Shown here piece by piece: positions 16,946-38,316 of a stretch of DNA of 64,000 bases. The DNA comes from Bacteroidales bacterium UBA1215 (GTDB taxonomy: Bacteria; Bacteroidota; Bacteroidia; Bacteroidales; WCHB1-69). Position 1 is the stretch's first letter, and the number at the start of each line of letters is the position of its first letter. Below the pieces are notes generated by a model. The model had not been told where the DNA came from. It searched no databases and saw only the letters and a list, made by a program, of their open reading frames with translations. The position numbers were made by a program, and so were the translations under genes. Location of the stretch: contig DBXJ01000034.1 of the NCBI GenBank assembly GCA_002309475.1, positions 5,741-69,740 of the forward strand, read 5' to 3'.

Positions 16946-16951
16946 TGATAT

Positions 16952-17566: not shown

Positions 17567-17611
17567 ATATAAAACAATGTGAGCATTATCAACAACGCTC
17601 ACATTTCATTT

Positions 17612-18811: not shown

Positions 18812-19026
18812 ATTTATTTTTTTTGTATATTTGCTGCAAAATTATACTTTTTCATGGAAAAAATTTCAGTCAAAGATAATTTCTATAAAAAACTTGTATT
18901 CAATGGTTTATAAGTTGTATTTTTTATTTTATACCTGTTAAAGAGAAAAATTTTTAACAAAAAAATACGAAAAATACTTACAAAAATGCCATTTTATCTA
19001 CAAAATTGAATTAAAAAGAGACATAC

Positions 19027-19692: not shown

Positions 19693-19693
19693 C

Positions 19694-20638: not shown

Positions 20639-20657
20639 TGACCTATTGTCAGCATCA

Positions 20658-20689
20658 AATAGGCGGAACAAAGTTCCGCCTATTTTTTT
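20658..20689 (+). terminator. rho-independent terminator after trxB (overlaps the 3' end of the convergent gene)
   Basis: aataggcggaac pairs with gttccgcctatt (12-bp stem, 3-nt loop), followed by a T-run. Confidence 0.7.
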
Positions 20690-21255: not shown

Positions 21256-21312
21256 GTTATTTTTTTTACTTAATTTTCAATTTTTATCTTGGCAAAAGTA
21301 CTAAAAAAATAC

Positions 21313-21320
21313 TATCTTTG
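21313..21320 (+). promoter_or_regulatory. -7 promoter box for the S9 peptidase gene
   Basis: TATCTTTG lies inside the ORF-track extension (..KYYLCIL..), 19 nt upstream of the ATG at 21340. Confidence 0.5.
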
Positions 21321-21339
21321 CATTTTAAATTTAAAAAAT

Positions 21340-23370: not shown

Positions 23371-23375
23371 AAAAA

Positions 23376-23398
23376 AGAGGCGATTGCCTCTTTTTTTT
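23376..23398 (+). terminator. rho-independent terminator after the S9 peptidase gene
   Basis: gaggc pairs with gcctc (loop gatt), followed by T8. Confidence 0.65.
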
Positions 23399-23441
23399 AC
23401 ATACAAATCTTTTCTCCTTACACATCTCGACACCTCCTATT

Positions 23442-23462
23442 CCTGAAAAATCATGATTTTTC
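23442..23462. repeat. perfect 18-nt palindrome gaaaaatcatgatttttc within cctgaaaaatcatgatttttc
   Basis: Read directly. A related cctgaac..aaaaatcaaattgattttttc occurs at 33054..33086. Confidence 0.7.
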
Positions 23463-23521
23463 GGGATTTGTATTAATTAAATATGATAATAGAAGTGTTG
23501 ACGAAAAGAATAAAATAAGGT

Positions 23522-24208
23522 TCAGGACAACTTTAGAGTTTTTTTTCTAAAATTCTTTAATAGCAAATTGAATAAATTTTCATGTCGATGATTATATCTA
23601 AATTCACATTCTTTAATATGTAAAATAAAAGTTTGTTTATCAATTCCTCTAAATTTTGTTAATCTACTTTTACACAATCCCCAAAAATTCTCTATACCAT
23701 TTGTATGTATTTTCCCATTTCTTACAAACTCATTATTATTATGAATAACAGTTAAATGATTAGAAAAACCATTGCCAATTAAGTGACGATATGTAGTAAA
23801 TCCATCTGTATATATTGTTGAATTGTCAGAAATAACTTGTTTAATTAAAGGCAATAATGTAGAATGTTTACAATCTCTAACTACAAAGGTAGAAACATTA
23901 CTACCCCTCTTTAATATACCAAATACGATTGTTTTTTCTTTTGCTCCACGACCTCGTATTCCTCGTACTCTGCAAGCACCAAAATAACTTTCATCAAGTT
24001 CATATTCTCCATCTGAACAGATAGTCTCTTCATCGCATATTTCCTTTATTCGAATTCTAAAACAGTAGAATAATTTATTGATACTTTGGCGAGAAATGTG
24101 AGTTATTTCAGCTACTTTTTTAGCTTCTATATCTAAACAAAAACAACGTAAAATTTGTCTAAATGTGCGTTCATTAATATGAGCATGCTCTAAATACTTA
24201 TTTTTCAT
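23522..24208 (-). CDS. IS1595 family (ISXO2-like) DDE transposase
   Basis: N-terminal HTH-like ERTFRQILRCFCLDIEAKKVAEITHISRQSINKLF. The DDE region has ELDESYFG, IYTDGF, HTNGIENFW and ECEFRYNHR blocks typical of IS1595 transposases. Confidence 0.85.
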   Translation of the reverse strand: MKNKYLEHAHINERTFRQILRCFCLDIEAKKVAEITHISRQSINKLFYCFRIRIKEICDEETICSDGEYELDESYFGACRVRGIRGRGAKEKTIVFGILKRGSNVSTFVVRDCKHSTLLPLIKQVISDNSTIYTDGFTTYRHLIGNGFSNHLTVIHNNNEFVRNGKIHTNGIENFWGLCKSRLTKFRGIDKQTFILHIKECEFRYNHRHENLFNLLLKNFRKKTLKLS

Positions 24209-24210
24209 CT

Positions 24211-24235
24211 TTGTATCAATTAGTTATTGATACAA
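24211..24235. promoter_or_regulatory. inverted repeat immediately upstream of the transposase start
   Basis: ttgtatcaa (24211-24219) and ttgatacaa (24227-24235) form 9-bp arms with a 7-nt loop, 2 nt from the ATG at 24208. Candidate operator or translational hairpin. Confidence 0.45.
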
Positions 24236-24243
24236 AAATAACG

Positions 24244-24257
24244 CTAAAGTTGTCTTG
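24244..24257. repeat. subterminal copy of the IS terminal repeat
   Basis: ctaaagttgtcttg versus terminal ctaaagttgtcctg: 13/14 identical, same orientation, about 80 bp inside the right end. Confidence 0.5.
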
Positions 24258-24368
24258 TGTAAATCTGCAACATTTTTTTGACTATATTGAGCAAATATTC
24301 AATCTATTATACAATATTTTTGTTTCTAAAGTTGTCCTGAACCAAATTTTATTTACATAAATTCAAAA

Positions 24369-24854
24369 CTACTTACAACAAGAATAAATTATCGTTACCA
24401 CTATAGACGCAATGGATAGAACAATAGTAGTTCCTATACCATACACTGCTGCACGAAAAGCTGACCTATTTGCTGTATCAAACTGTTTCCACAAATAGCA
24501 AAAATTATTTGCTCGTTCAACTATAACCTTCTTTTTCTTTTGATTGTTTTGTGGGAATAGTTCCTTTTGGGTTCTATACCCCAAAGCGATTTCTTCACTG
24601 TTTATTCCATTGCAAGCACGACATTTACGATAAACAGGTTTGCCTTCCCCATCCTCTCGACTTATTTTTACTAAACCCTCCCAGTAATATTGAGGTCTAA
24701 TTTGTCTTTTTGTTTTTTTACATATAAGACTACCAAGGCTTTTACTATAAACCAATGCAAAATTTTCATAATCTATGGTTTTATCCATAAAATCTTGTGG
24801 AATATTTTCTACTTTAAATGTATTTATTTCTTCTTTATTATTATTTTTACACAT
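24369..24854 (-). CDS. hypothetical tail-anchored membrane protein
   Basis: 161-aa AT-rich ORF with a single C-terminal TM helix (AAVYGIGTTIVLSIASIVVTIIY). No family recognised. It lies 59 nt downstream of the 1659-aa gene on the same strand. Confidence 0.5.
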   Translation of the reverse strand: MCKNNNKEEINTFKVENIPQDFMDKTIDYENFALVYSKSLGSLICKKTKRQIRPQYYWEGLVKISREDGEGKPVYRKCRACNGINSEEIALGYRTQKELFPQNNQKKKKVIVERANNFCYLWKQFDTANRSAFRAAVYGIGTTIVLSIASIVVTIIYSCCK

Positions 24855-24913
24855 ATTCTATATTTTTATTTATCATTTAATATAAAATTCTTTAAATTAC
24901 TAAAATATATTTT

Positions 24914-27900
24914 CTATTGATTTACATTTCGTACTAAACGAATAGAAAGACCAAAATAACGATTTAAGGTTATTGATGGATTAAGATCGTACGAACCAAA
25001 AGTCAAGTAATAAGCGTAATCGCTATTGTAACACGTAGATGACCAATAGTAACCACCTGGGCCGGCAGCATTAATAGAAACTCTTTTGCGATTACCCGCA
25101 GACGGCAAAAAAACACAACCCGCAGCATCCATCTTGGCCCAATCATTTACATTGATAATATTTGATGTATGCAACGCATTTTGTGTATTGGGATTATTTA
25201 ATAGATAAATAGATGTACTCCAATCATCAGGCACAATAATTAAACCTTCAACACCATTGATAGTGGCTTTTGCATAACGTATGCCTGAAATAGTACTACG
25301 CGTATTCAACAGATAAGCCCATTCATTTTGAGTCAATGTACGCCATGTACCCGGTGCATCAGTCGTATTCGTTTTAGGATTATAAATGGCATTATACACG
25401 CCCCAGTCATAATTAGTTCCTGAAATATTGATACTACCATTTCCATAATCCGAATAATTTGTACTTGTTGTATAAGGATATTTATTATTATATCCGCTGG
25501 TACCCCAACCAAATAAATCTATCCATCCGGAGTATGAAGAATCTATGTTGCTATTATTTGTACCAATAGTATCCCATTGTTGAGGAGCAAATCTCCATGT
25601 GCCTGCAGCAGTTCCATTACCTGCCACTACATGAGTGGTGGCAGTAGTTCCACCATTCTTGGCACTCCATTGCAGATTGCCGGGTGAAAATAACACCTTT
25701 TGTGTGGCAGAAACGGAAAATTGTGCATTACTTTGTGTTGCCGGAGTAGTAAATGTATCTTGGTTGCCGTAAGCTGTACCTGCAGCATTGGTTGCATAGG
25801 CTCGAACATAATAAGTTGTACCTGATTTTAATCTGGTGATATTACTTGTAAAACTACCAATACCACTGCTATCGGAAGTATGGTTGCTATTTATGGTAGG
25901 ATTGGGCAATGTATCCCAACAAATTCCTCGGGCTATTACCACGGCTCCACCATTAGACGTGATAATTCCTCCGCTAACTGCAGAACTATCGGTTATATTA
26001 CTTACCACTATGGTAGTAAGTATGGGAATTGTAATGTTTGCTTTTGTAGTAAACGTCACTTGATTGCCATATGTAATACCTGCAGCATTGGTTGCATAGG
26101 CTCGAACATAATAAGTAGTATTACTTGTTAAGCCGGTAAGATTGCTTGTAAAACTACCTGTATCTAATCCATTGTTTGTATGATTATCATTTATAGTAGG
26201 ATTTGGAGAGGTACTCCAACATATTCCACGAGTTGTAACCATAGAACCTCCATCTGAGATTATATTGCCTCCGCTAACTGCAGAACTATCTGTTATGTTA
26301 CTTGCTACTATAGTGTTAATTACAGGTAAATTTTGAACTAAATTGCTAACATCTTGAACAAGGCGAACAGAAAGACCAAGATCGGTATAATAACTGTACA
26401 AAGGATTTACACTGATCGAATCAAATTTCAATTCGTATGCGTATTTATTATTTATAATAGACATATTTGCAGACCAATAAAATCCGGTATAATTAACATG
26501 AAAGGTCGAAGTCCCACTACGGTCTCCTGCTGCAGGTAGGAAGACACAACCTGATCTTTCCATATATAACCAATCCAATCCTTTAATAGTATTAGAACTA
26601 TATGGTGCATTTAAAGTATTAGGCATACTAAATTTGTTAGATGAGAGATAACAAGTGTCAGGAACAATAATTAAACCTCTCACTCCATTCACCACAGCTT
26701 TTGCATAACGTATGCCGGATGAGGTTGTACGAGTATTCAACAAATAATTCCATTCATCTTTGGTCAAAGTTCGCCATGTCCCCGGAGCATCTGTATGATT
26801 GGTTTTAGAATTATAAATAGCATTATACACACCCCAATCATAATTAGTACCTGATATATCGTTACTCCCATTGCCATAATTCGAAATTGTACCACCATTA
26901 GGATTATTATTATTATATCCGCTTGATCCCCAATAAAATAAGTCTATCCATCCAGTATAAGAAGTATCTATTAACCTCCTATTATTGACACCAATGGTAT
27001 CCCACTGATTGGGGGCAAAACGCCATGTTCCGGTAGCAGTACCATTTCCTACTACTGCATGAGTAGTGGCAGTATTACCACCATTGGTGACACTCCACTG
27101 CAAATTGCCAGATGAAAATAACACCTTTTGTGTGTCAGTAACGGAAAATAGTAAATTAGGCGTTGGAAGAGTTATAAATTCAACTTGATTGCCGTATGCT
27201 GTACCGCCAGCATTGGTAGCGTATGCTCGAACATAATACTTGGTGTAGCCATATAAATTAGTAAGATAGCCTACAAAATTACCTGTATCACTACCATTAC
27301 TTGTATGATAATCATTAATAGTAGGATTAGGAGAAGTACTCCAACATATTCCACGAGTAGTTACCATAGCACCTCCATCTGAAGTTATATAACCTCCACA
27401 AACTGCAGAACTACCAGTTATATTACTGGCTATTATAGTGTTAACTACTGGTAAATTTCGTATTGGTTTGTTAATATCATGAACAAGGCGAACAGACAAA
27501 CCATATCTGCGCCACCTACTTCCCCAACCGACACTTTGATTGGAAAACCCAATATAACTCGCACCTGTTTCAGTAACGTTCCTAGCCGACCAGTATACAC
27601 CACTGGAACCGATATAGATGACCGAATCCCAACTATTACGCCTGCCGGCAGCTGGAAGAAAAACACAACCTGCAGAATCCAATTTCACCCAATCTAAAGC
27701 ATTAATCACGTTGGAAATAAATGTTGCACTTTTTATATTTGTACTATCCAATGCATATATAGAGTTACTCCAATTGTCAGGAACAATAATTAAACCATTC
27801 ACTCCATTCACCACAGCTTTAGCATAACGAATACCAGATAGAGTATTTCGTGTACTTAGCAAATACCCCCATTCATCCCCATATTCATCAACCCATCCTT

Positions 27901-29893
27901 TTAAGGTACGCCATGTACCTGGAGCATTTGTAGTTTGTGTTTTGGAATTATAAATAGCATTATACACGCCCCAATCATAATTGGTATTTGAAATACTACT
28001 ACTTCCATTACCATAAAGTGTATCTATAGGAATAGCCATATAAGGATATTTATTATTATACCCACTGGTGCCCCAGCCAAACAAATCTATCCATCCGGTA
28101 TAGGTAGAATAAATGTTCATGTTATCGGCACCAATTGTATCCCACTGATTAGGAGCAAAACGCCATGTGCCTGCCGCCGTTAGATTGTCTGCTATTGTAT
28201 GAGTAGTGAGAGTATCTCCTCCATTAGTGGGACTCCATTGAAGATTTCCGGGTGAAAAATACACATATTTACCATTACCAACGGAAAATGATTTATCTAA
28301 CACTGCGATAAAACTAATTTGATTTCCATATGCCGTATCAAAGGCGTTGATAGCATAAGCACGAACATAATATATCTTACCTAATTCAAGTCCTACTAAA
28401 TGGCTAGTAAAACTTCCAATCCCTGACCCATCAATAGTGTGATTATCATTAATAGTTGGATATTGTGAAGTACTCCAGCACACACCTCGTGCTGTAACCA
28501 TAGTTCCTCCATCTGAACTTATCTTACCTCCGCAAATAGCAGAATTTTCAGTTACATTACTTACATCTATGGTAGTAAGTATCGGAATTGTAGTATTTGC
28601 AGTAAACGACACTTGGTTGCCGTATGCTGTTCCAGCAGCATTGGTAGCGTAAGCTCGAACATAATAAGTAGTATTCTTTGTTAAGCCGGTAAGATTGCTT
28701 GTAAAACTACCCGTACCGGAACCATTAGTCGTGTGATTATCATTAATAGTTGGATTTTGTGAAGTACTCCAGCACACACCTCGTGCTGTAACTTGTGCGC
28801 CTCCATCGGATGTGATATTTCCTCCGCTTGTTGCTGAACTATCCGTTATATTGCTTGCCGTAAAGGTATTTATTGTTGGTAATGTTGCCGGTATTGCCGT
28901 AACAAAGACTATCTCATTACCAAAGGCCGTTCCTACACTATTGGTAGCATACGCTCGAACATAATACGTAGTATTACCAGTTAAGTTGGTAATATTACTT
29001 GTAAAATTACCTATACCACTGCCATCTGTTGTGTGATTCCCGTTGATAGTAGGATTATGAGACGTACCCCAACATACTCCTCGTGCTGTTACTTGTGAGC
29101 CTCCATCAGATGTGATATTGCCTCCACTAACAACAGATGTTTCGGTTATATTGCTTGCCGTAATAGTACTTAGTTTTGGTAAAGTAGTTGGTTGTGTAGC
29201 ATTGAATTTTAAACTAAATGTTTGTGTATTGCCTTGTGCTTGCGTAATACGTTGGCTTTCTTCCATATTACCATTAATAGTAGCATATCCTACATATTCC
29301 ATCATATCTCCATAGCTAAATGGTTGCGAGGATTGCCGTTTTTGAATTTTGGAGGTTTGTTCCTCTGAAAGCGGCAAGGTACTTCTAAACTTTATATAAT
29401 TATCCCCGGAATGCCCTACATTAACGAGTTTTTGTACCATACGCCCTTCTAAGGTGTTTACCACCAAGAAATAAACTTGTGGTTTCTGGAAACCTATGTC
29501 AAAATGATTGATTCCGGCTTCTAATTGCGAACTAAACTCCATCACTCGCTGACCGGTTATATTATACACAGCCATATACACTTCCTCACTTTGTGGTATC
29601 GTAAGCAATACCGAACTTGTACCATTGAAAGGATTGGGATACGAAAAAAGCCCTATTCCCTGTTCTTGAACATCGGAAATGCCTGTTTTATTGGTAAGTG
29701 TGAGTACCGTATCCGGCCAATAAATTGTTTCTTGCCAACTTTTGGTTAAATTAGTAACAACCACTTTGTTGAGTTGTACATATCTATTGGTTGCATCTCT
29801 ACCTGTAAAAGTAAGTGACACTGTCTGTGCTGATACAGTTGCTATGCTACATAAACAACCTAAAATAAATGTCAAAAAATTTATCTTTTTCAT
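24914..29893 (-). CDS. giant modular secreted/surface protein: N-terminal T9SS-sorting-domain-like module, 6 Fn3/Ig-like repeats, 3 FISUMP/DUF1566-like lectin-fold modules
   Basis: 1659 aa. Domain map in aa: signal 1-22 (VSA-Q; alternative lipobox ILGC at 10-13); beta domain 23-78; CTD-like 81-160; linker 161-236; ~95-aa repeats at 238-333, 338-432, 436-531, 814-908, 1189-1283 and 1289-1383; ~265-aa lectin-like modules at 535-805, 914-1181 and 1391-1656. Confidence 0.85.
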   Translation of the reverse strand: MKKINFLTFILGCLCSIATVSAQTVSLTFTGRDATNRYVQLNKVVVTNLTKSWQETIYWPDTVLTLTNKTGISDVQEQGIGLFSYPNPFNGTSSVLLTIPQSEEVYMAVYNITGQRVMEFSSQLEAGINHFDIGFQKPQVYFLVVNTLEGRMVQKLVNVGHSGDNYIKFRSTLPLSEEQTSKIQKRQSSQPFSYGDMMEYVGYATINGNMEESQRITQAQGNTQTFSLKFNATQPTTLPKLSTITASNITETSVVSGGNITSDGGSQVTARGVCWGTSHNPTINGNHTTDGSGIGNFTSNITNLTGNTTYYVRAYATNSVGTAFGNEIVFVTAIPATLPTINTFTASNITDSSATSGGNITSDGGAQVTARGVCWSTSQNPTINDNHTTNGSGTGSFTSNLTGLTKNTTYYVRAYATNAAGTAYGNQVSFTANTTIPILTTIDVSNVTENSAICGGKISSDGGTMVTARGVCWSTSQYPTINDNHTIDGSGIGSFTSHLVGLELGKIYYVRAYAINAFDTAYGNQISFIAVLDKSFSVGNGKYVYFSPGNLQWSPTNGGDTLTTHTIADNLTAAGTWRFAPNQWDTIGADNMNIYSTYTGWIDLFGWGTSGYNNKYPYMAIPIDTLYGNGSSSISNTNYDWGVYNAIYNSKTQTTNAPGTWRTLKGWVDEYGDEWGYLLSTRNTLSGIRYAKAVVNGVNGLIIVPDNWSNSIYALDSTNIKSATFISNVINALDWVKLDSAGCVFLPAAGRRNSWDSVIYIGSSGVYWSARNVTETGASYIGFSNQSVGWGSRWRRYGLSVRLVHDINKPIRNLPVVNTIIASNITGSSAVCGGYITSDGGAMVTTRGICWSTSPNPTINDYHTSNGSDTGNFVGYLTNLYGYTKYYVRAYATNAGGTAYGNQVEFITLPTPNLLFSVTDTQKVLFSSGNLQWSVTNGGNTATTHAVVGNGTATGTWRFAPNQWDTIGVNNRRLIDTSYTGWIDLFYWGSSGYNNNNPNGGTISNYGNGSNDISGTNYDWGVYNAIYNSKTNHTDAPGTWRTLTKDEWNYLLNTRTTSSGIRYAKAVVNGVRGLIIVPDTCYLSSNKFSMPNTLNAPYSSNTIKGLDWLYMERSGCVFLPAAGDRSGTSTFHVNYTGFYWSANMSIINNKYAYELKFDSISVNPLYSYYTDLGLSVRLVQDVSNLVQNLPVINTIVASNITDSSAVSGGNIISDGGSMVTTRGICWSTSPNPTINDNHTNNGLDTGSFTSNLTGLTSNTTYYVRAYATNAAGITYGNQVTFTTKANITIPILTTIVVSNITDSSAVSGGIITSNGGAVVIARGICWDTLPNPTINSNHTSDSSGIGSFTSNITRLKSGTTYYVRAYATNAAGTAYGNQDTFTTPATQSNAQFSVSATQKVLFSPGNLQWSAKNGGTTATTHVVAGNGTAAGTWRFAPQQWDTIGTNNSNIDSSYSGWIDLFGWGTSGYNNKYPYTTSTNYSDYGNGSINISGTNYDWGVYNAIYNPKTNTTDAPGTWRTLTQNEWAYLLNTRSTISGIRYAKATINGVEGLIIVPDDWSTSIYLLNNPNTQNALHTSNIINVNDWAKMDAAGCVFLPSAGNRKRVSINAAGPGGYYWSSTCYNSDYAYYLTFGSYDLNPSITLNRYFGLSIRLVRNVNQ

Positions 29894-29898
29894 ATCTT
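29232..29898 (-). repeat. 667-bp near-identical 5' module, copy 1 (pairs with 32217..32883)
   Basis: Constant offset of 2985 nt with no indels and roughly 40 substitutions by eye. The encoded residues 1-221 differ at 9 positions. Confidence 0.85.
29414..29653 (-). other. T9SS type-A sorting-domain-like segment (aa 81-160) in an N-terminal position
   Basis: LFSYPNPFNGTSSVLLTIPQSEEVYMAVYNITGQRVMEFSSQLEAGINHFDIGFQKPQVYFLVVNTLEGRMVQKLVNVG. Confidence 0.65.
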
Positions 29899-29944
29899 TT
29901 ACCTAAAATTCAATGTTATAGTATTTATTAGAAACCTTTATTTT

Positions 29945-32878
29945 TTATTGCACATTCTTCACAAGACGGACAGAGTGACCAATGTAGCAATCCACAATAA
30001 CCGATGGATTTAAAGAATACCTAGAAATAGATAAATAATAAGCCTCACCGCTTGTGAAATTTGTAGTTGACCAATAGTAGGCAGAAAAAAAGACATCATA
30101 AACTGAAGTTCCAATACGATAGCCGGTAGAAGGCAGAAAGACACAACCCGCATTCTCCATTGTTGTCCAATCTGCATTACTAATAATATTAGATGCATAA
30201 GTCGCACTTGGTGTATTAGTACTATCCAATGCATGGATAGAGGTACTCCAATTGTCAGGAACAATAATTAAACCACCTTTTCCCCATACTGTAGCTTTCG
30301 CATAACGTAATCCGGATAAAGTAGTACGAGTATTCAACAAATACGTCCATTCATCTTTGGTTAATGTACGCCATGTGCCCGGAGCATCAGTGGTATTGGT
30401 TTTAGGATTATAAATAGCATTATACACTCCCCAATCATAATTAGTACCTGCAATATTGTTATTGCCATTTCCATAATCTGTTCCTGTAATACTAGTCATA
30501 TATGGATATTTATTATTATATCCGCTGGTACCCCAACCAAACAAGTCTATCCATCCGGTATCGGTGGAAGATATGCTACTATTGGTAGATCCTATTTTAT
30601 CCCATTGATTAGGGGCAAAACGCCATGTTCCGGCTGCAGTACCATTGCCTGCTACTATATGAGTGGTGGCAGTATTGCCTCCATTGGTGGCACTCCATTG
30701 TAAGTTGCCGGGAGAAAATAAAACCTTTTGTGTGGCAGAAACTGAAAATTGTGTATCAGACTTCACTCCTGTAGTAGAAAACGTCACTTGATTGCCGTAA
30801 GCTGTACCTGCTGCATTGGTAGCATAGGCTCGAACATAATAAGTAGTATTACTTGTTAAGCCCGTAAGATTGCTTGTAAAACTTCCAGCACCGGAACCAT
30901 TAGTTGTGTGATTAGTATTGATAGTAGGATTAGGAGAGGTACTCCAACATACTCCCCGAACTACAACCGAAGAACCTCCATTTGAAGTGATATTGCCACC
31001 ACTTACGGCTGTACTATCGGTTATATTGCTCACTCTTATAGTATTGACTATAGGCAATATGGCAACATTCCGAACAAGGCGGACAGAAAGACCGTAGCAG
31101 TGGTTGCGGTCCCACGAGGGACCTAGACCGCTCGAATCGAAGGACAAAACGTACGCGTGACCTCTATCGTAGTACGTAGCCGACCAGTAGGTGCCGTCAT
31201 CAACGACATATTTGACCGAAGTCCCAATACGGTTGCCGGCAGCAGGCAGGAAGACACAACCTACATTTTCCATTTTAGCCCAGTCAGTTGCACCAATAAT
31301 ATTGGATGTATATGCCGCACTTGCTGTATTCACGTTTGTTAATGGATAATAAGTATTACTACAATTATCCGGAACAATGATTAAACCCACAATTCCACAT
31401 ACTGTAGCTTTAGCATATCGTATGCTAGATAAGGTAGGACGAGTATTTAACAAATAAACCAATTCGTCTTTTGTCAATGTACGCCAAGTACCTGGTGCAT
31501 CGGTGGTACTAGTTTTAGGATTATAAATAGCATTATAAACGCCCCAATCATAATAAGTGCCTGAAATATTGTTGCTCCCATTGCCATAATCTCTGTATGA
31601 GGTACTTGTCATATACGGAAATTTTTGATTATATCCGCTGGTGCCCCAACCAAACAAGTCTATCCAACCGGTATAGGTAGAGGAAATATTTCCATTGTTT
31701 GCCCCGATGGTATCCCATTGGTGTGGAGCAAAACGCCATGTACCTGCAGCAGTGCCATTGCCTGCCACTATATGGGTGGTAGCGGTATTGCCCCCATTGG
31801 TGGCACTCCATTGCAAATTTCCGGGAGAAAATATTACAGAATCGGTAGCACTAACAGAAAATACGGGAGAATTAATTTTTGCATCTGTGGTAAATGTAAC
31901 TTGGTTACCATACGCTGTACCAGCAGAATTGGTAGCGTATGCACGTAAGTAATAGGTTGTTCCTGCTGTAAGTCCGGTCATATTACTTGTAAAACTGCCT
32001 GTATCTAAACCATCGGTTGTATGATTATTGCTAATGGTGGGATTAGACGTTGTATCCCAACAAATACCGCGGGCTGTTACCGAAGATCCTCCATCGGATG
32101 TAATATGGCCTCCACTAACTGCCGATGTGGTAGTAATATTACTGGCTGTGAATGTATTTAATGTTGGTAATATTGCCTTTGTTACATCAAATTGTAAAAT
32201 AAATGTTTGTGATGTTCCTTGTGCCTGCGTAATACGTTGGCTTTCTTCCATATTACCATTAATAGTAGCATATCCCATATATTCCATCATATCTCCATAA
32301 CTAAATGGTTGCGAGGATTGCCGTTTTTGAATTTTGGAGGTTTGTTCCTCTGAAAGCGGCAAGGTACTTCTAAACTTTATATAATTATCCCCGGAATGCC
32401 CTACATTAACGAGTCTTTGTACCATACGCCCTTCTAAGGTGTTTACCACCAAGAAATAAACTTGTGGTTTCTGGAAACCTATGTCAAAATGATTGATCCC
32501 GGCTTCTAATTGCGAACTAAACTCCATTACTCGCTGACCTGTAATATTATACACAGCCATATACACTTCCTCACTTTGTGGTATCGTAAGCAATACCGAA
32601 CTTGTACCATTGAAAGGATTGGGATATGAAAAAAGACCTATCTCCTGTTCTTGAACATCGGAAATACCTGTTTTATTGGTAAGTGTGAGTACTGTATCCG
32701 GCCAGTAAATTGTTTCTTGCCAACTTTTGGTTAAATTGGTAATTGTTATGCTATCCAATTGCACATAATTATTGGTAGCATCTCTACCTGTAAATGTAAG
32801 TGATACTGTCTGTGCTGATACAGTTGCTATACTGCATAAACAACCTAAAATAAATGTTAAAAAATTTATCTTTTTCAT
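29945..32878 (-). CDS. giant modular secreted/surface protein, paralog: same N-terminal module, 2 Fn3/Ig-like repeats, 2 lectin-fold modules
   Basis: 977 aa. Domain map in aa: signal 1-22; CTD-like 81-160; repeats 237-331 and 608-702; lectin-like modules 339-604 and 710-975. Only 51 nt separate it from the downstream 1659-aa gene. Confidence 0.85.
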   Translation of the reverse strand: MKKINFLTFILGCLCSIATVSAQTVSLTFTGRDATNNYVQLDSITITNLTKSWQETIYWPDTVLTLTNKTGISDVQEQEIGLFSYPNPFNGTSSVLLTIPQSEEVYMAVYNITGQRVMEFSSQLEAGINHFDIGFQKPQVYFLVVNTLEGRMVQRLVNVGHSGDNYIKFRSTLPLSEEQTSKIQKRQSSQPFSYGDMMEYMGYATINGNMEESQRITQAQGTSQTFILQFDVTKAILPTLNTFTASNITTTSAVSGGHITSDGGSSVTARGICWDTTSNPTISNNHTTDGLDTGSFTSNMTGLTAGTTYYLRAYATNSAGTAYGNQVTFTTDAKINSPVFSVSATDSVIFSPGNLQWSATNGGNTATTHIVAGNGTAAGTWRFAPHQWDTIGANNGNISSTYTGWIDLFGWGTSGYNQKFPYMTSTSYRDYGNGSNNISGTYYDWGVYNAIYNPKTSTTDAPGTWRTLTKDELVYLLNTRPTLSSIRYAKATVCGIVGLIIVPDNCSNTYYPLTNVNTASAAYTSNIIGATDWAKMENVGCVFLPAAGNRIGTSVKYVVDDGTYWSATYYDRGHAYVLSFDSSGLGPSWDRNHCYGLSVRLVRNVAILPIVNTIRVSNITDSTAVSGGNITSNGGSSVVVRGVCWSTSPNPTINTNHTTNGSGAGSFTSNLTGLTSNTTYYVRAYATNAAGTAYGNQVTFSTTGVKSDTQFSVSATQKVLFSPGNLQWSATNGGNTATTHIVAGNGTAAGTWRFAPNQWDKIGSTNSSISSTDTGWIDLFGWGTSGYNNKYPYMTSITGTDYGNGNNNIAGTNYDWGVYNAIYNPKTNTTDAPGTWRTLTKDEWTYLLNTRTTLSGLRYAKATVWGKGGLIIVPDNWSTSIHALDSTNTPSATYASNIISNADWTTMENAGCVFLPSTGYRIGTSVYDVFFSAYYWSTTNFTSGEAYYLSISRYSLNPSVIVDCYIGHSVRLVKNVQ

Positions 32879-32883
32879 ATCTT
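32217..32883 (-). repeat. 667-bp near-identical 5' module, copy 2
   Basis: See 29232..29898. Confidence 0.85.
32399..32638 (-). other. T9SS type-A sorting-domain-like segment (aa 81-160) in an N-terminal position, second copy
   Basis: Same sequence as copy 1 except K155R. Confidence 0.65.
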
Positions 32884-32976
32884 ATAATGTTTATTCTATC
32901 AATACAATAACTAAAAATTTTATTTTTTTGTTAAATTTTTAAAATTCTCATTTTCAGCATTATATCTTCTCAAAAA

Positions 32977-32999
32977 TCTAAAGTTATTCTATACCAAAT
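32977..32999. repeat. degenerate solo copy of the IS1595 right end
   Basis: tctaaagttattctataccaaat versus tctaaagttgtcctgaaccaaat (24325..24347): 19/23 identical, same orientation. Confidence 0.5.
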
Positions 33000-33016
33000 A
33001 TAATACTATAAAAGTG

Positions 33017-33024
33017 CAAAGATA
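33017..33024 (-). promoter_or_regulatory. -7 promoter box for the giant-gene operon
   Basis: caaagata is the revcomp of TATCTTTG. It is the only such box upstream of 32878 and leaves a ~135-nt leader. No box is present in the 51-nt gap before the second gene. Confidence 0.45.
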
Positions 33025-33078
33025 GCATTTTTTCTTCATTTTATAAACTCTAACCTGAACTTTTTAAAAATCAAATTG

Positions 33079-33140
33079 ATTTTTTCTTAAAAAATTATTT
33101 TCTAATTCAAATTTTTGTTGTACTTTTGCAAGCTGAAAAT
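33079..33140 (+). repeat. cassette spacer copy C (promoter module upstream of abiEi)
   Basis: 33104..33140 is 34/37 identical to 34501..34537. The spacing from the attttctt-like start to the -7 box is 42 nt in both copies. Confidence 0.7.
33121..33128 (+). promoter_or_regulatory. -7 promoter box for the abiE operon
   Basis: TACTTTTG lies 40 nt upstream of the ATG at 33169. Confidence 0.55.
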
Positions 33141-33165
33141 ACAAAATTTTTGTATATACAGCTTG
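33129..33165. promoter_or_regulatory. nested palindrome between promoter and abiEi start (candidate AbiEi operator)
   Basis: Outer arms caagctg/cagcttg (33129-35 and 33159-65). Inner palindrome atacaaaa-t-ttttgtat at 33139..33155. Confidence 0.45.
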
Positions 33166-33168
33166 CTT

Positions 33169-33729
33169 ATGAATATTTTGAATATCCTATTATCCAGTTC
33201 ACGGACGGTGTTTACCCCTCAATGGTTAGCCATGACATGTGAAGAAAAAGAACGGCAGTCATTACGACGTTCTCTTATTTACTATGCCAAAAAAGGAGCC
33301 CTGCTAAATCCGCGAAAGGGCATTTATACCAAACCGGCATACAATGAACAAGAAATGGCTTGTGCATTGCTAAAACCGTCTTATATCTCTCTTGAGTACG
33401 TGTTGGCACGTGCCGGTGTAACGTTTCAATACAGTTCGGATATTACCTGCATCAGCTACCAAAACCGCATTATCGAAGTGGATAAACGTTCCTATGTATT
33501 CCGGCAAATCAATCCCAAAATATGGATGAACATGGCGGGCATTGAACAGCACGACAATATTGCCATTGCCACACCGGAGCGAGCTTTTCTGGATATGCTC
33601 TACCTCAGTAGCGGACAATGCTATTTCGACAATCTGCATCCCTTAAAAAAGAATCTTATCCGACAAATTTTGCCGGTTTACAATTCTCCGACATTAACCA
33701 AACGCGTAGAAATGCTTTTAAATCAATAA
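33169..33729 (+). CDS. type IV toxin-antitoxin system AbiEi-family antitoxin (transcriptional regulator)
   Basis: N-terminal wHTH-like ..SRTVFTPQWLAMTCEEKERQSLRRSLIYYAKKGALLNPRKGIYTKP.. resembles the AbiEi_4 pattern. Sits 3 nt upstream of an AbiEii gene. Start corrected from 33115, which reads through the promoter. Confidence 0.7.
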   Translation: MNILNILLSSSRTVFTPQWLAMTCEEKERQSLRRSLIYYAKKGALLNPRKGIYTKPAYNEQEMACALLKPSYISLEYVLARAGVTFQYSSDITCISYQNRIIEVDKRSYVFRQINPKIWMNMAGIEQHDNIAIATPERAFLDMLYLSSGQCYFDNLHPLKKNLIRQILPVYNSPTLTKRVEMLLNQ

Positions 33730-33732
33730 ACT

Positions 33733-34425
33733 ATGGATATCAACAAACACCGCTATTACTTGACACAATTACTGCTGGCGATATTTCGTCATCCTGAATT
33801 ATGCAAACTGCTGGCATTCAAAGGAGGCACCTCGCTAATGCTCTTCCATGGCTTGACGCGATTTTCTACCGATTTGGATTTTACCTTGTTAGATGCTACA
33901 AAATCAAAATATGTATATAAAGAATTACATCGTTTGCTGCTGAAATTCGGCACTATTGACGATGAAGCTATGAAATTTTATGGTCTGATTCTGGTGCTCA
34001 ACTACGGCAAGGACGAACGGATGTTGAAAGTGGAAGTCAGCAATCGCGAATATCCCAACCACTATGAAATTCGCTCACTACTCGGCACGGATATTCGTGT
34101 TATGACACTACCGGACATGTTTGCACATAAACTATGTGCATTAGGCGAACGAATTACTCCACGCGACATCTACGATGTATGGTTTTTCTTGCAAAAACGC
34201 ACAGCGATTAACGAAGAGATTGTCCGCATGCGTACCAATATGTCCGTCAGCGAGTATGCACAACAATGTGCAAAAAAAGTGCGAGAATATAGTTCCCGAA
34301 TACTGATGCAAGGAATCGGAGATGTTCTCATGGACAATCAATCCAAGAATTTCGCCCGCAAGCAACTTATCCCCGAAACCGCCTCCGCATTGGAACTATT
34401 CGCCACATATCCTTTACTGGCTTAA
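33733..34425 (+). CDS. AbiEii/AbiGii-family nucleotidyltransferase toxin
   Basis: KGGTSLMLFHGLTRFSTDLDF is the nucleotidyltransferase hG[GS]x9-13DxD motif in the DUF1814/AbiEii context; 230 aa. Confidence 0.8.
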   Translation: MDINKHRYYLTQLLLAIFRHPELCKLLAFKGGTSLMLFHGLTRFSTDLDFTLLDATKSKYVYKELHRLLLKFGTIDDEAMKFYGLILVLNYGKDERMLKVEVSNREYPNHYEIRSLLGTDIRVMTLPDMFAHKLCALGERITPRDIYDVWFFLQKRTAINEEIVRMRTNMSVSEYAQQCAKKVREYSSRILMQGIGDVLMDNQSKNFARKQLIPETASALELFATYPLLA

Positions 34426-34517
34426 CATTTTTCGCGACATTACCTCCAAGAGCATTTCAAATGTAATTTATTTGCATTTTCTTGCCCTAAATCTTTGTTT
34501 ATTTCAAAATTTTGTTG

Positions 34518-34525
34518 TACTTTTG
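34518..34525 (+). promoter_or_regulatory. -7 promoter box for the ATPase gene
   Basis: TACTTTTG within the shared module ttttgttgtacttttgcaag. Confidence 0.55.
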
Positions 34526-34537
34526 CAAGTTGAAAAT

Positions 34538-34568
34538 CGTAACACACATTACGGTAATACGTGTTACG
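34538..34568. promoter_or_regulatory. 31-nt imperfect palindrome in the ATPase leader
   Basis: cgtaacac-ac-attac-g-gtaat-ac-gtgttacg, with 8-bp outer and 5-bp inner arms. Confidence 0.6.
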
Positions 34569-34590
34569 TTTATAAAAATTCAAAGAAAAA

Positions 34591-35910
34591 ATGAAATTCT
34601 ATAATCGTGAAAAGGAGTTGCAGTTATTGCATGAAATTGAGGTTACATCGTGTGAACATTCGCAGATGACAGTATTGGTAGGACGGAGACGTATCGGGAA
34701 AACCAAACTACTACTGAAAGCCATTGAAGGCAAACCGTCTGTATATTTATTTGCCTCACGCAAAAGTGAAAGTATCCTTTGCCAACAATTTGTTGAAGAA
34801 GTGGAGCGATCGTTGAATATGCCTATTGGCCGGTACACGCGTATTGCCGCTCTCTTGGAACATTTGATGCGTATCTCAAAATATACTCCTTTCACGTTGA
34901 TTATAGATGAATTTCAAGAATTGGAGAAAATAGATTCCTCTATCATTGGCGACATACAACGGGTTTGGGACCTAAACAAAGACGAAAGCCGGATAAATTT
35001 ATTACTCAGCGGCAGTGTCTATTCCATGATGAAGCATATCTTTGAGGATGCAAAAGAACCGCTATTCTCTCGCGCAAGCCATATTATAAATTTAAAGGCT
35101 TTCAGCACCGACACACTGAAAACAATTCTTGCAGATTTCAATCCCCACTACACACAAGAAGACTTGCTTGCTCTTTACATGTTCACAGGTGGTGTAGCTT
35201 GGTATGTAGAACTGCTGATGACGGCCAAAGCATGGACGTGGAAAAAGATGATAGAGGTGATTTTTCAAGAACAGTCACTATTTATCAATGAAGGAAAAAA
35301 TCTGCTAATTGAGGAAATAGGAAAAGAATACAGCATCTATTTCTCCATATTGGAGTGCATTTCGCGAGGAATAAACACCCGGGGAGATATAGAAAATGCA
35401 ACAGGGGTGAAGGAAATCGGCGGCTACCTTAGCAAATTAGAGAAAGACTTCGGTATTATTGCTCAGTTGCGTCCGATATTTAGCAAACCGGCTTCCAAAA
35501 CCGTCAAATATACTATCTCTGATAACTTCTTGACGATTTGGTTCCGATTTTTCTACAAATACATGAATTATGTAGAATCCGATAACTTTACACTACTGAG
35601 AAAGATGGTCAAGAGAGACTATCAGACTTGTTCCGGTATTATGTTGGAGCGATATTTCCGTCAACAAGCTAAAGAATCCGGCAAATACACAGATATCGGA
35701 CAATTCTGGGACAAGAAAGGACAACACGAAATTGACATAATCCTTGTTAATGAGCAAGAACAACTTCTTCGTATAGGAGAAATCAAACGCCAAGCAAAAA
35801 ACATTGATTTCTACGCCTTACAAAATAAAATAGATCATTTCTTGTCTCTACACCCCCAACTTCAGCAATATACAAAAGAAATTCTTACATTATCAATGAA
35901 AGATATGTAA
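34591..35910 (+). CDS. AAA-type ATP-binding protein (Arch_ATPase + DUF234-like architecture)
   Basis: MKFYNREKELQLL start, Walker A GRRRIGKTKLL and Walker B LIIDEFQE. The 439-aa length and layout are typical of the PF01637/DUF234 ATP-binding proteins common in Bacteroidales. Confidence 0.8.
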   Translation: MKFYNREKELQLLHEIEVTSCEHSQMTVLVGRRRIGKTKLLLKAIEGKPSVYLFASRKSESILCQQFVEEVERSLNMPIGRYTRIAALLEHLMRISKYTPFTLIIDEFQELEKIDSSIIGDIQRVWDLNKDESRINLLLSGSVYSMMKHIFEDAKEPLFSRASHIINLKAFSTDTLKTILADFNPHYTQEDLLALYMFTGGVAWYVELLMTAKAWTWKKMIEVIFQEQSLFINEGKNLLIEEIGKEYSIYFSILECISRGINTRGDIENATGVKEIGGYLSKLEKDFGIIAQLRPIFSKPASKTVKYTISDNFLTIWFRFFYKYMNYVESDNFTLLRKMVKRDYQTCSGIMLERYFRQQAKESGKYTDIGQFWDKKGQHEIDIILVNEQEQLLRIGEIKRQAKNIDFYALQNKIDHFLSLHPQLQQYTKEILTLSMKDM

Positions 35911-36036
35911 TTTATTTGCATTTTTCTAACATAAATCCTTTCTTATCATCTGTTTGTGTGGTACTTATAAATTCAAAATCGTAACATACATTACGGTAAT
36001 ATATGTTACGTTTGCTAAAAAGAACATAGCAAAATG
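35905..36036 (+). repeat. cassette spacer copy B (downstream of ATPase gene; decayed promoter, no gene behind it)
   Basis: Same 20-nt start (overlapping the ATPase last codon and stop, atg taa). The -7 box has decayed to tacttata and the palindrome is conserved. It ends at an ATG (36034) opening only a 23-codon ORF. Confidence 0.7.
35980..36010. repeat. second copy of the 31-nt palindrome with compensatory arm change
   Basis: cgtaacata-c-attac-g-gtaat-a-tatgttacg. The arm pair c/g of copy A is replaced by t/a, so symmetry is preserved. Confidence 0.6.
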
Positions 36037-36132
36037 GATTTTTACTGCGGATTTGTCTATAAAATGAATATATGCAAAACTATTTGCATTAAGAATTCAA
36101 AGTAAGCTCTTTTCGATTCAAAGCATCGGATT

Positions 36133-38316
36133 TTATTCGTTTACAAACACAAAATCCATTTGTTTTTTAGTTTGATCAACAGCTTTTACCTTCACGCTGA
36201 CAGCATCTCCCAAGCGGATGGTTTTGCCGCTGTGTTGTCCGATATAGCGATAGTTTTCTTCGTCATAATAGTAGAAATCGTCTGTCAGCGTTTTCACTGA
36301 CACCATTCCCTCGCATTTGGAATCATCCAACTGCACCCAGATGCCCCATTTGCTGACACCGGAGACGACACCGTCGAACACTTGCCCGATCTTGTCGGAC
36401 AAAAACTCCGCCTGCTTGTATTTAATAGAATTTCTTTCTGCCTCGGTTGCCTTTTGTTCCATATCGGAAGCATGTTTGCATTTTTCTTCCAATTCCTCTT
36501 TGTTGACAGAAGGTTTTCCGGTTAAATAACGGGTTAACAAACGATGCACCATCAAATCGGGATATCGGCGGATAGGAGATGTAAAATGTGTATAATATTT
36601 AAATGCCAAACCATAATGTCCAATATTGTCGGTGGAATACACAGCTCGCTGCATGGTTCTAATCGCCAGAGTTTGTATCATGTTTTGCTCTTGCCTGCCC
36701 TGTATATCTTTCAACAAACCATTCATTGATGCAGATAAATTCTTGCTGCCGGACAGACGCATTTGGTAGCCGATTCTTTCCAAGAAGGTATTAAAAGTAT
36801 TGATTTTTTCATCAGAAGGTTTGTCGTGAACACGATAGACAAAACTTTTGGTCTCCTGATTTTGGGCTACCTTGCCGATTTTCTCTGCCACTTTGCGATT
36901 GGCTAACAACATAAAATCTTCTATCAATTGATGTGAATCGGTGTTTTCACATATATAAACGCCTATCGGTTTGGCATTTTCGTCTAAGATAAATTTCACT
37001 TCCTCTGTGGCGAAATCAATAGCCCCATGGTCAAAACGCTCTTTTCGGAGTATTTTTGCCAGTCGGTCCAAGGTGAGAATTTCTTCGGCGAATTCACCTT
37101 TTTTAGTCTCAATAATTTCCTGCACTTCCTCATAATTAAAGCGTCTATCGGAATTGATGATCGACCTGCCTATCCATTGCTTATGGATTTTTGCTTGGTC
37201 GTCTAATTCAAAAACAACCGAATAGCACAATTTATCTTCATGGGGTCGCAATGAACAAAGCAGGTTGCACAATTTTTCCGGCAACATGGGATAGGTTCTA
37301 TCCACCAAATAGACGGAAGTGCCCCGTTGATAGGCTTCTTGATCTATTGCCCCGCCTTCTTTCACATAAAAAGATACATCGGCAATATGTACACCCACTT
37401 GATAGTGCCCGTTTTCCATTTTTTTAAAAGACAAGGCATCGTCAAAATCTTTTGCATCAGCAGGATCGATGGTGAAAGTGAGCACATTGCGGAAATCTCT
37501 ACGGGCATACAATTCTTTTTCCGGAATCGTGGTGGAAATATTTTCCGCCTCCCTCTCTGCTGCTTTCGGAAATTCCAAAGCAAAATTTTGGTCTATCAAA
37601 ATAGACTTCATCTCCACATCGTTGTTGCCAGGATATCCCAATACCTGCTTTACGTTTCCAAAAGGATTTTTCACATGGTCGGACCATTCTGTAATTTCCA
37701 CTACCACCTTTTGCCCGTTTTTGGCACCGTGAAGGTTTTCCCGTGGAATTAATATGTCAATAGGCATATTAACATCATCAGGAATAAAATAAGGAATTGT
37801 TCGAGAATAATTAATCGTGCCTACAAACAGTTTTTTGCTACGTTCCAATATCTCCACTACGCGGCCTTCCGGATGTTTGCCGTTACGGGCGGGAAACAAC
37901 TGCACCTTCACCCGGTCACCATTGAGAGCATGATGGGTATTGTTGGCAGCAATAAAAACATCTTCAATTTCAGGATTTTCTGACAATAGGTAGGCTTTGC
38001 CTGTAGGTTTCATCAGCAAACGACCTTCCAAAATATTGTCAGGATTCATTTCTACATGAATAGGATTGAGTTTGAATTTGCCTCTTTGACCGACTACCAA
38101 CACTTGATGCTGCAACATATCGGTAATCGTTTTTTTGACCAATTCCCTGTCACTTTTATCGTTAATACCTAATTGTGCAGAAACTTGCTTATAGTTAAAA
38201 TACTGATATGGATTTTTAGAAAAAACTGCCAACACCTGTGCTTCAAACAAGGTATTCGTTGTAAATTTATCCGATTTCTGTCTTTTTCTTGCCATAAATA
38301 TTAATGTTTTGTCCAC
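36133..38316 (-). CDS. rnr: ribonuclease R
   Basis: N-terminal wHTH/cold-shock-like region, an RNB catalytic domain (..DPADAKDFDDALS.., ..HFTSPIRRYPDLMVHR..) and a C-terminal S1 domain (GVVSGVSKWGIWVQL). The alternative start MARKRQK at 38295 avoids overlap with the upstream ORF. Confidence 0.9.
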   Translation of the reverse strand: MDKTLIFMARKRQKSDKFTTNTLFEAQVLAVFSKNPYQYFNYKQVSAQLGINDKSDRELVKKTITDMLQHQVLVVGQRGKFKLNPIHVEMNPDNILEGRLLMKPTGKAYLLSENPEIEDVFIAANNTHHALNGDRVKVQLFPARNGKHPEGRVVEILERSKKLFVGTINYSRTIPYFIPDDVNMPIDILIPRENLHGAKNGQKVVVEITEWSDHVKNPFGNVKQVLGYPGNNDVEMKSILIDQNFALEFPKAAEREAENISTTIPEKELYARRDFRNVLTFTIDPADAKDFDDALSFKKMENGHYQVGVHIADVSFYVKEGGAIDQEAYQRGTSVYLVDRTYPMLPEKLCNLLCSLRPHEDKLCYSVVFELDDQAKIHKQWIGRSIINSDRRFNYEEVQEIIETKKGEFAEEILTLDRLAKILRKERFDHGAIDFATEEVKFILDENAKPIGVYICENTDSHQLIEDFMLLANRKVAEKIGKVAQNQETKSFVYRVHDKPSDEKINTFNTFLERIGYQMRLSGSKNLSASMNGLLKDIQGRQEQNMIQTLAIRTMQRAVYSTDNIGHYGLAFKYYTHFTSPIRRYPDLMVHRLLTRYLTGKPSVNKEELEEKCKHASDMEQKATEAERNSIKYKQAEFLSDKIGQVFDGVVSGVSKWGIWVQLDDSKCEGMVSVKTLTDDFYYYDEENYRYIGQHSGKTIRLGDAVSVKVKAVDQTKKQMDFVFVNE

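Follow-up and report, generated by a model that had tools for sequence, protein, structure and literature searches.

Autoregulation by AbiEi, the winged-helix product of the AbiE defence operon, through inverted repeats in the operon's own promoter has been published (PMC7319586; PMC3985639). Archaeal Orc1/Cdc6 proteins, in which an AAA+ domain is followed by a lid and a winged helix, take the short inverted repeats of the ORB elements as the target of the winged helix. The PDC proteins are defence candidates predicted by genomic embedding, most of which await experimental validation (PMC12988326). Here we report on a stretch of 64 kb from Bacteroidales bacterium UBA1215 (contig DBXJ01000034.1; hereafter the window, in whose numbering all coordinates are given), in which the gene for an ATPase that matches the PDC-S27 models over nearly its full length adjoins an abiE operon in a variable island. 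Three similar non-coding units lie in this region: unit C upstream of abiE, unit A upstream of the ATPase gene and unit B downstream of it. In our judgement it is probable that A and B are paralogous leaders of PDC-S27-type genes, each with an array of pentamers as a self-bound operator, that B has been orphaned, that C is the abiE promoter, and that the locus as a whole is a defence hot spot.

Compared with the described systems, unit C and its palindrome resemble the AbiEi arrangement exactly, and the ATPase leader follows a like logic. The ATPase array nevertheless differs from the AbiEi repeats in sequence and layout (5-mers with N4 and N1 spacing, in 2-4 units) and goes with another protein family; its presumed binder is the large ATPase-nuclease itself, with no dedicated antitoxin, and the array is known here from its sequence. 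The likeness to Orc1/Cdc6 and ORB elements lies in the domain order and, by prediction, in the use of short inverted repeats as winged-helix target, whereas the ATPase sites are located at its own promoter, show no sign of a replication origin and belong to a protein with an extra C-terminal DUF234 domain of the PD-(D/E)XK fold. The elements concerned are as follows.

34461-34590, + strand: unit A, active leader of the ATPase gene, delimited by repeat detection, alignment and promoter-anchored comparison
34494-34497 and 34518-34525, + strand: -33 element TTTG and -7 box TACTTTTG of the unit A promoter, followed by the operator array and then by an AT-rich 5' leader
34539-34567, + strand: predicted operator array A, GTAAC acac ATTAC g GTAAT acgt GTTAC, a motif common to 55 of 63 homologous ATPase loci
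34591-35910, + strand: ATPase gene; AAA+ (Orc1/Cdc6-like), winged helix and DUF234 (PD-(D/E)XK), PDC-S27 family, from Pfam, PADLOC and an AlphaFold2 model
35905-36065, + strand (repeat copy proper 35905-36036): unit B, read as an orphan leader, with a decayed -7 box, TACTTATA, at 35961-35968
35981-36009, + strand: predicted operator array B, GTAAC atac ATTAC g GTAAT atat GTTAC, from palindrome search and family motif scan
36034-36105, + strand: 23-codon open reading frame (ORF) opening with ATG GAT TTT TAC (MDFY), likely a remnant of an ATPase gene (its first four codons)
33079-33140, + strand: unit C, abiE core promoter, with a -33-like TTTC at 33099-33102 and the -7 box TACTTTTG at 33121-33128
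34461-34480, + strand: first copy of the 20-mer ATGTAATTTATTTGCATTTT, the left limit of the ATPase presence/absence polymorphism
35905-35924, + strand: second copy of the 20-mer, overlapping the end of the ATPase gene (last codon and stop)

Units A and B could be aligned over their full length (~130 nt, about 80-85% identity), with repeat blocks of 42 nt at 81% and 52 nt at 85%. Within the window the 20-mer ATGTAATTTATTTGCATTTT has exactly two copies, one at 34461 and one at 35905; 0.09 matches with up to 3 mismatches would be expected by chance. An ATG is found 130 nt past the start of A (at 34591) and 129 nt past the start of B (at 36034). Near-perfect palindromes of 29-33 nt, which the original prediction had not included, lie in A (34536-34568) and in B (35978-36010), and the array within each is 29 nt long and has the form GTAAC-N4-ATTAC-N-GTAAT-N4-GTTAC. 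The palindrome at C (33128-33166) differs from these two; C shares only the core promoter with A, and its putative operator is a different one.

A search of the GTDB (one genome per species, 185,579 species) with the strict pattern GTAACNNNCATTACGGTAATNNNNGTTAC gave 23 loci with one match each, nearly all of them in Bacteroidota and spread over many families. A homologue of the window ATPase (41-74% identity) begins just downstream of the palindrome in 13 of the 23, the remaining 10 being orphan arrays or arrays beside truncated ATPase fragments. For an unbiased sample, 80 metagenomic loci were fetched via the protein and not via the motif; 71 were non-identical, and 63 had enough upstream sequence. 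An array was located within 120 nt upstream of the start codon in 55 of these 63 loci; 92 kb of ATPase coding sequence contained none, and 226 kb of other flank a single one. In its general form the array consists of 2-4 repeats of GNAAY-N4-RTTNC at a period of 15 nt, with 5-mers alternating in orientation, and the pentamer varies among loci between GTAAY, GAAAY, GCAAY and GAACT. The promoter consensus of Bacteroides consists of TAnnTTTG at -7 and TTTG at -33. An exact TAnnTTTG box ended 4-14 nt (median 7) 5' of the array in 46 of 65 cases, and the distance from array end to ATG had a median of 26 nt; with the transcription start predicted from this consensus, the array would span about +1 to +30 of the transcript. 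As only two arrays occur in the 64 kb of the window and arrays are tied to one gene family, a dispersed repeat of the repetitive extragenic palindrome (REP) or miniature inverted-repeat transposable element (MITE) kind was rejected. A phage link of the palindrome was rejected as well, since a search of viral contigs with its pattern gave 0 matches. The pentamer-array operator motif of the PDC-S27 family appears to be undescribed.

The original prediction, of one promoter-bearing spacer present in three copies between defence-type cassettes, was accurate in its coordinates and identities for A, B, C, the 20-mer and the ATG spacing, in the overlap of the 20-mer with the end of the ATPase gene, in the decayed -7 box and 23-codon MDFY frame of B, and in its gene identities (AbiEi, AbiEii, ATPase and RNase R, from PADLOC and Pfam). 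Its single spacer has to be given up, since C has the core promoter only and a different operator; likewise, what had been taken for a generic cassette spacer is a family-specific leader of PDC-S27-type ATPase genes, as evidenced by the 55 of 63 loci above.

Two individual loci call for mention. A perfect-core array at 340-368 of L004 (compared loci and contigs are cited by L numbers) stands beside feoB-like genes with no ATPase nearby, on a contig labelled Pseudomonadota; the contig may be mis-binned, or the array may have been transferred. L007 has two arrays 800 nt apart (1993-2021 and 2818-2859), between which short ORFs resemble fragments of serine/tyrosine recombinases (MIYGYIRVSS..., ...ARHSWAS...).

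The ATPase itself has the COG1672-type architecture of ATPase_2 and DUF234, both domains being found by Pfam: ATPase_2 (PF01637, E 7.5e-15) as the N-terminal AAA+ part and DUF234 (PF03008, E 3e-9) at the C-terminal end. The PADLOC profile for PDC-S27 (PDLC04985) matched residues 2-435 of 439 with E 2.3e-41, NCBIfam had no model for the protein, and the family numbers at least 7938 relatives at E <= 1e-20. DUF234 has been placed among the PD-(D/E)XK families (PMC3424549), and the positions D382...E397-x-K399 are invariant in both ATPase alignments. In the AlphaFold2 model (mean predicted local distance difference test score, pLDDT, 80), a winged helix is formed by helices 244-258, 264-271 and 277-286 with wing strands 290-293 and 306-309. 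A fold search with the model gave archaeal ORC/Cdc6, PABY2304 and SSO1545, all of them AAA+ plus winged-helix proteins, as top PDB matches; ORC/Cdc6 structures ranked first, at E 2e-7 with template modelling (TM) scores of only 0.23-0.31, and the best structural matches (1w5t, 1fnn, 2qby) have sequence identities of only 11-19%. PDC-S27 is apparently among the PDC candidates awaiting validation, and an anti-phage role is hence a candidate role. The papers searched for DUF234, COG1672, PDC-S27 and guilt-by-embedding yielded nothing on the regulation or a regulatory motif of this ATPase family. As a separate observation, an element of ~25 nt, TTTCTCTACAATATTTCAAAGAAC, directly follows the ATPase stop codon in L116, L126, L122, L037, L024, L120 and L125, in unrelated contexts; the window version, TTTTCTAACATAAAT, is weak.

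An alignment of 60 full-length ATPases was used to rank columns by how well they separate GAAAY-type from GTAAY-type loci. Column 281 (window numbering; motif IGGYL-x-K/R-L-E) was the top column by mutual information (0.99), the array variable that it tracked being the second base of the pentamer: Thr was found in 24/24 GAAAY loci and in 0/30 GTAAY loci. In the model, residue 281 is situated in the third helix (277-286) of the winged helix, and 8 of the top 35 discriminating columns fall within residues 281-310. At least two switches contradict the protein tree. L089, L093 and L094 have Ser together with GTAAY arrays and are nested in GAAAY/Thr sequences, while L050 has Thr together with a GAAAY array and is nested in GTAAY-type and mixed-array sequences. 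Because residue 281 co-varies with the pentamer and sits in the winged helix, we infer that the ATPase binds the array in its own leader, which it most likely represses; it is the co-variation that suggests the DNA contact by the winged helix.

The leader, on this reading, would consist of a Bacteroidota promoter followed, at a median of 7 nt past the -7 box, by an array around the predicted transcription start, which would serve as a DNA operator for the ATPase's own winged helix. Binding would repress the promoter by blocking RNA polymerase at +1. Unit A would be the working leader of the ATPase gene, and B that of an adjacent paralogue which has lost its coding sequence by deletion, the pentamers of B being kept presumably because proteins of the family still bind them. 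Cassettes would recombine at shared leader/promoter segments, as seen at the 20-mer and at a repeat of ~130 nt in L120 (see below).

Unit B is found in every strain that keeps this segment, including an empty-site strain (L030) and strains with abiE and no ATPase, and is a resident sequence of the site; its right edge is set by the insertion of a 287-aa gene in L033 and L028 (window 36065 / 36118-36125). The ATG follows the array after 24 nt in B and 23 nt in A, and the MDFY of B stands against MKFY in the ATPase. MDFY is the genuine start of a family member in L085, and a Pfam scan of the 23-codon ORF gave no match. In a comparison of 7 strain variants of B, 0 of 20 pentamer positions were variable, compared with 5 of 8 in the N4 segments (Fisher p 0.0006) and 28 of 132 in the rest of the unit (p 0.026). 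Since its pentamers are invariant across these variants, the B array appears constrained despite the decayed -7 box. An intact tandem pair of ATPase genes, 79% and 47% identical to the window protein and each with promoter and array, was observed at 3501-6434 of L125. Arrays lie just 3' of the ATPase stop codon in L036 and L011, and a downstream array was present in only 1/63 of the unbiased loci; this rarity marks the layout as a remnant of neighbouring paralogues and not as part of the gene architecture. Unit B is therefore best read, from its sequence and setting, as the leader left behind by a gene of the ATPase's own family that has since been lost.

Around B and in the tandem pair some further details were recorded. 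The two genes of L125 are nearly identical over the stop codon, the 19 coding bases before it and ~12 nt after it. A third, collapsed unit after B was considered and rejected: the resemblance of 36062-36090 to the ATPase 3' end plus 20-mer is weak (AATGAATATATGCAAAACTATTTGCATT; equalled by 33 of 1000 shuffles) and is left as a hint that this segment could be the tail of a deleted second ATPase, and a comparison of 36090-36105 with the end of leader A gave no significant likeness (145 of 1000 shuffles). A remnant of an earlier ATPase before A was also rejected, as inspection of 34426-34460 (ATGTAA frame) revealed no convincing similarity to the ATPase C-terminus.

The abiE part of the locus is a standard AbiE operon, including the palindrome to be expected in its promoter, and comprises the following.

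33169-33729, + strand: abiEi (PADLOC AbiEi, E 1.7e-73)
33733-34425, + strand: abiEii (PADLOC AbiEii, E 1.1e-94; Pfam AbiEii, E 2.5e-25)
33128-33166, + strand: abiE palindrome GCAAGCTGAAAATACAAAA/TTTTGTATATACAGCTTGC, with 19-nt arms that are 89% complementary, the presumed AbiEi operator

The two genes lie 3 nt apart and form a bicistronic operon of the type IV toxin-antitoxin/abortive-infection kind. The palindrome overlaps the last base of the -7 box and ends just before the abiEi ATG (RNA-fold z -5.9); unit C is the abiE promoter with a palindrome of its own which, by analogy with the published autoregulation, is presumably the operator for AbiEi. The A-C match covers 49 nt at 86% identity (34489-34537 vs 33092-33140), and the core promoter of A is closer to C than to the promoters of orthologous ATPase leaders (L035, L036). 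An independent case of the promoter module shared by A and C, which had been part of the original prediction, was found in L120, where an ATPase gene (79% identical to that of the window at the protein level) is bracketed by a direct repeat of ~130 nt (2816-2938 and 4329-4448) composed of ATPase 3' flank and promoter. Copy 1 leads into the ATPase array. Copy 2 is continued by a palindrome of the abiE type (GCAAGCTG...CAGCTTGC) and by an abiE whose internal deletion has fused AbiEi residues 1-29 to AbiEii residues 159-230; a hipBA module is next. The window and L120 are hence two independent loci in which one promoter module stands before both an ATPase gene and an abiE operon. The breakpoints in both lie between the -7 box and the predicted cassette-specific operator, and this promoter sharing fits recombination at shared promoter/leader segments as one route of cassette shuffling.

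To follow the locus among strains, conspecific contigs from many assemblies that share an identical 114-aa protein beside rnr were compared. The flanks are 97-99% (mostly ~99%) identical to those of the window, and the interval between the S9 peptidase gene and rnr has at least six gene contents.

L030: empty site, with the S9 side, ~60 nt, unit B from window 35907, and rnr
L032 and L034: a 500-aa Por_Secre_tail gene, unit B absent
L027, L029 and L031: various genes, abiE and a single B-type unit, ATPase absent
L033: as the three preceding, plus an insertion between window 36065 and 36125 that holds the 287-aa gene
L028: other genes, along with a B-like unit and the 287-aa gene
Window, L001 and L002: abiE, A, ATPase and B, with three different left flanks
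23488-35904, between the S9 peptidase side and unit B: strain-specific island of the window, from alignment with the empty-site strain L030
23522-24208, - strand: ORF of 228 aa for an IS1595/ISXO2-like DDE transposase, at the island's left edge (Pfam DDE_Tnp_IS1595, E 5.4e-24)
36133-38316, - strand: rnr (RNase R), the conserved right flank (Pfam RNB, E 1.9e-115), 97-99% identical across strains

L030 runs from window 16950-23487 through ~60 nt into window 35907 onwards, and the homology of L001 and L002 to the window begins exactly at the start of C (33079/33073). In strains with abiE and no ATPase, the abiE 3' flank passes directly through the 20-mer into B-type sequence; the ATPase polymorphism is therefore a segment of 1444 nt bounded by two identical 20-mers. 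This locus is a hot spot for gain, loss and permutation of defence-type cassettes among conspecific strains; the cassette turnover expected of the S9 peptidase/rnr interval was indeed observed, with one strain empty and several carrying abiE without the ATPase. It resembles other defence hot spots between core genes in its ~99% identical flanks, its at least six contents, its toxin-antitoxin and defence genes and its insertion sequence (IS) element, and differs from them in that some breakpoints lie at the cassettes' own promoter/leader repeats (the 20-mer, the start of C and the L120 repeat) and that the site has no tRNA and, among the nine ORFs scanned, no integrase.

Several side observations concern the island and its edges. 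At its left boundary (window 23440-23470), L030 and L031 carry two copies of a repeat of ~21 nt (aaaaatcatgatttttcggga / aaaaatcatgtaatttcggga) and the window one, and the window, L030 and L031 diverge right after cgggatttg. The abiE segment (window 32181-34578) is ~5% diverged from L027, L029, L031 and L033, against ~1% for the core flanks, which suggests that island alleles have had a history separate from that of the core flanks. Two giant ORFs on the - strand, 24914-29893 (1659 aa) and 29945-32878 (977 aa), have Por_Secre_tail near the N terminus (residues ~85-157), unlike the C-terminal position normally expected of this type IX secretion system (T9SS) sorting domain, and share internal repeats of 72-76% identity with one another and with genes of other strains. 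At another locus, L006/L026 and L015 have an identical orphan array and right flank (280-aa gene, hisS) and different toxin-antitoxin-like genes on the left, the break being at the left edge of the array.

Several points count against the self-bound leader as we read it. A recognisable array was not found in 8/63 family loci, and the co-variation is based on ~60 sequences with only two or three independent switches. Mixed arrays break the simple rule: in L046 and L072, outer GAAAT pentamers go with Ser or Leu at 281, and in L125 the second ATPase combines Thr with outer GTAAT pentamers. The pentamer conservation in B was judged on only 7 related sequences, A and C have only 5 identities more than the best unrelated promoter pair, and the ATPase indel is compatible with insertion or deletion alike, a single crossover in the 20-mer being the mirror image of a deletion between 20-mers. 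Co-variation between the palindrome arms would be expected for RNA pairing too, and an array that starts ~2 nt after +1 occupies the place expected of a protective 5' stem-loop.

These last two points lead to the possibility that the palindrome works as RNA, forming a stem-loop at the 5' end of the ATPase mRNA, or else two short hairpins, and so controlling its stability or translation. The array does begin ~2 nt past the predicted +1, within the 5' untranslated region; leader B folds with z -4.05; the pentamer pairs are 82-88% complementary under either pairing scheme, with some G-U-type pairs; and one arm change between A and B is compensated (C/G to T/A). Leader A, however, folds no better than shuffles (z -1.19). 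The N4 segments are 42% complementary (32% when shuffled) and 41% identical in direct orientation (29% when shuffled), and plain tandem arrays of 15-nt repeats in L106 and L111, along with arrays of three to four units in L079 and L109, could not form one long stem, on which grounds a single long RNA hairpin was rejected. Pentamers are, moreover, conserved in additional array copies upstream of the promoter (L011 and L115) and in orphans without a -7 box, and their sequence tracks a residue of the predicted DNA-recognition helix. Rfam 15 gave only one tRNA in the whole window at gathering threshold and, at E up to 5, no match better than E = 1 in 33000-36200, and thus no RNA family for any palindrome. 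We favour recognition of half-sites in double-stranded DNA, as evidenced by the non-complementary N4 segments, the tandem units and the extra upstream copies, and regard an RNA role as quite improbable. A second objection concerns A and C, whose likeness might be convergence on a strong Bacteroidota promoter consensus in AT-rich DNA, with no common descent or gene conversion. When 60-nt segments anchored on all 131 TAnnTTTG sites of the window were compared (8515 pairs; mean 21.2 identities, standard deviation 3.5), unrelated promoter pairs reached up to 39-41/60, so that part of the A-C match is generic consensus, and -7 regions of the GTACTTTTGCA type recur in L011, L060, L125 and L126. The A-C pair nonetheless ranked top of the 8515 with 46/60 identities, ~7 standard deviations above the mean; its identity runs on past the -7 box for 12 nt, into the abiE palindrome's left arm (GCAAGYTGAAAAT), which is not consensus sequence; orthologous ATPase leaders (L035, L036) have different promoter sequences; and L120 presents an unambiguous promoter duplication of ~130 nt between ATPase and abiE. 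Convergence is accordingly an unlikely explanation.

How the cassettes move allows further alternatives, one of them an integron-like, site-specific cassette system. The units would then be attachment sites at which a dedicated recombinase acts on the 20-mer or the palindrome. Like integron arrays, the locus has genes in a row with related, imperfectly palindromic non-coding units between them and cassettes that are present or absent between strains; the ATPase presence/absence is bounded exactly by the identical 20-mer, several different islands end at one point just left of GTAATTTATTTGCA, and orphan arrays mark variable/conserved junctions (L006/L026 vs L015). Integron cassettes are promoterless and each end in an attC site, with cores RYYYAAC...GTTRRRY. 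The locus differs in having no attI, in units that bear promoters and lie 5' of the gene, and in a palindrome tied almost exclusively to one gene family, whose ends (TCGTAAC...GTTACGA) do not fit the attC R''/R' cores. No integrase or recombinase Pfam match was obtained among the nine ORFs scanned in or beside the island (21289-32878 and 33169-38316), a set that takes in part of the ORFs of the wider flanks, the only transposase being that of IS1595 at the far end. The 20-mer is nowhere else in the window, an identical run of 20 in a 130-nt alignment of 80% identity is not very improbable (estimated expectation ~0.25), and there were no viral-contig matches. We consider such a system highly improbable; the former tandem array whose last cassette was lost is supported in part, by the reading of B as a lost-gene leader and by the intact pair of L125. 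Alternatively, the ATPase cassette might be a selfish, self-mobilising element whose winged helix recognises the array and whose DUF234 nuclease cuts it, orphan arrays such as B being empty targets that are filled by homing-like repair or Campbell-type integration. One protein does combine a predicted sequence-specific winged helix, an ATPase and a nuclease-fold domain (PMC3424549), arrays flank the gene on both sides in the window, L036 and L011, the ~130-nt direct repeat of L120 brackets a cassette, orphan arrays are frequent, and a short element is conserved after the stop codon at many loci. Against this, conservation across contexts ends at the operator and promoter with no terminal repeats defined, the indel breakpoint lies in the 20-mer and not at the array, and nuclease activity is a prediction. 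That arrays are, as a general rule, the two ends of a mobile element was rejected on this upstream limit and on the 1/63 loci with a downstream array, and a self-mobilising cassette seems very unlikely. A related scheme, in which PDC-S27 cassettes are semi-autonomous modules whose ATPase-nuclease recognises its own array, with orphan arrays as landing pads and integrase-free shuffling at leader/promoter repeats (Campbell-type or nuclease-triggered), is put forward as a speculation with a small chance of being right; if true, it would be a mechanism of defence-gene shuffling that needs no integrase.

Taken with the self-bound leader that we prefer, the locus is a typical variable defence hot spot in which the ATPase would be an autoregulated defence-candidate gene, and what is new is the predicted pentamer-array operator of the PDC-S27 family together with an apparent specificity residue. 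PDC-S27 is among the commonest predicted single-gene defence candidates of bacteria and archaea, and we know of no mechanism or regulation established for it. The present analysis supplies a candidate DNA target for its winged helix, the GNAAY-N4-RTTNC arrays, and a candidate specificity residue, with Thr281 going with GAAAY and other residues with GTAAY. It predicts that the ATPase gene represses itself and that orphan arrays would be markers of lost gene copies. The locus also exemplifies the reshuffling of Bacteroidales defence genes at a hot spot of the chromosome, where breakpoints fall in repeated promoter/leader segments.

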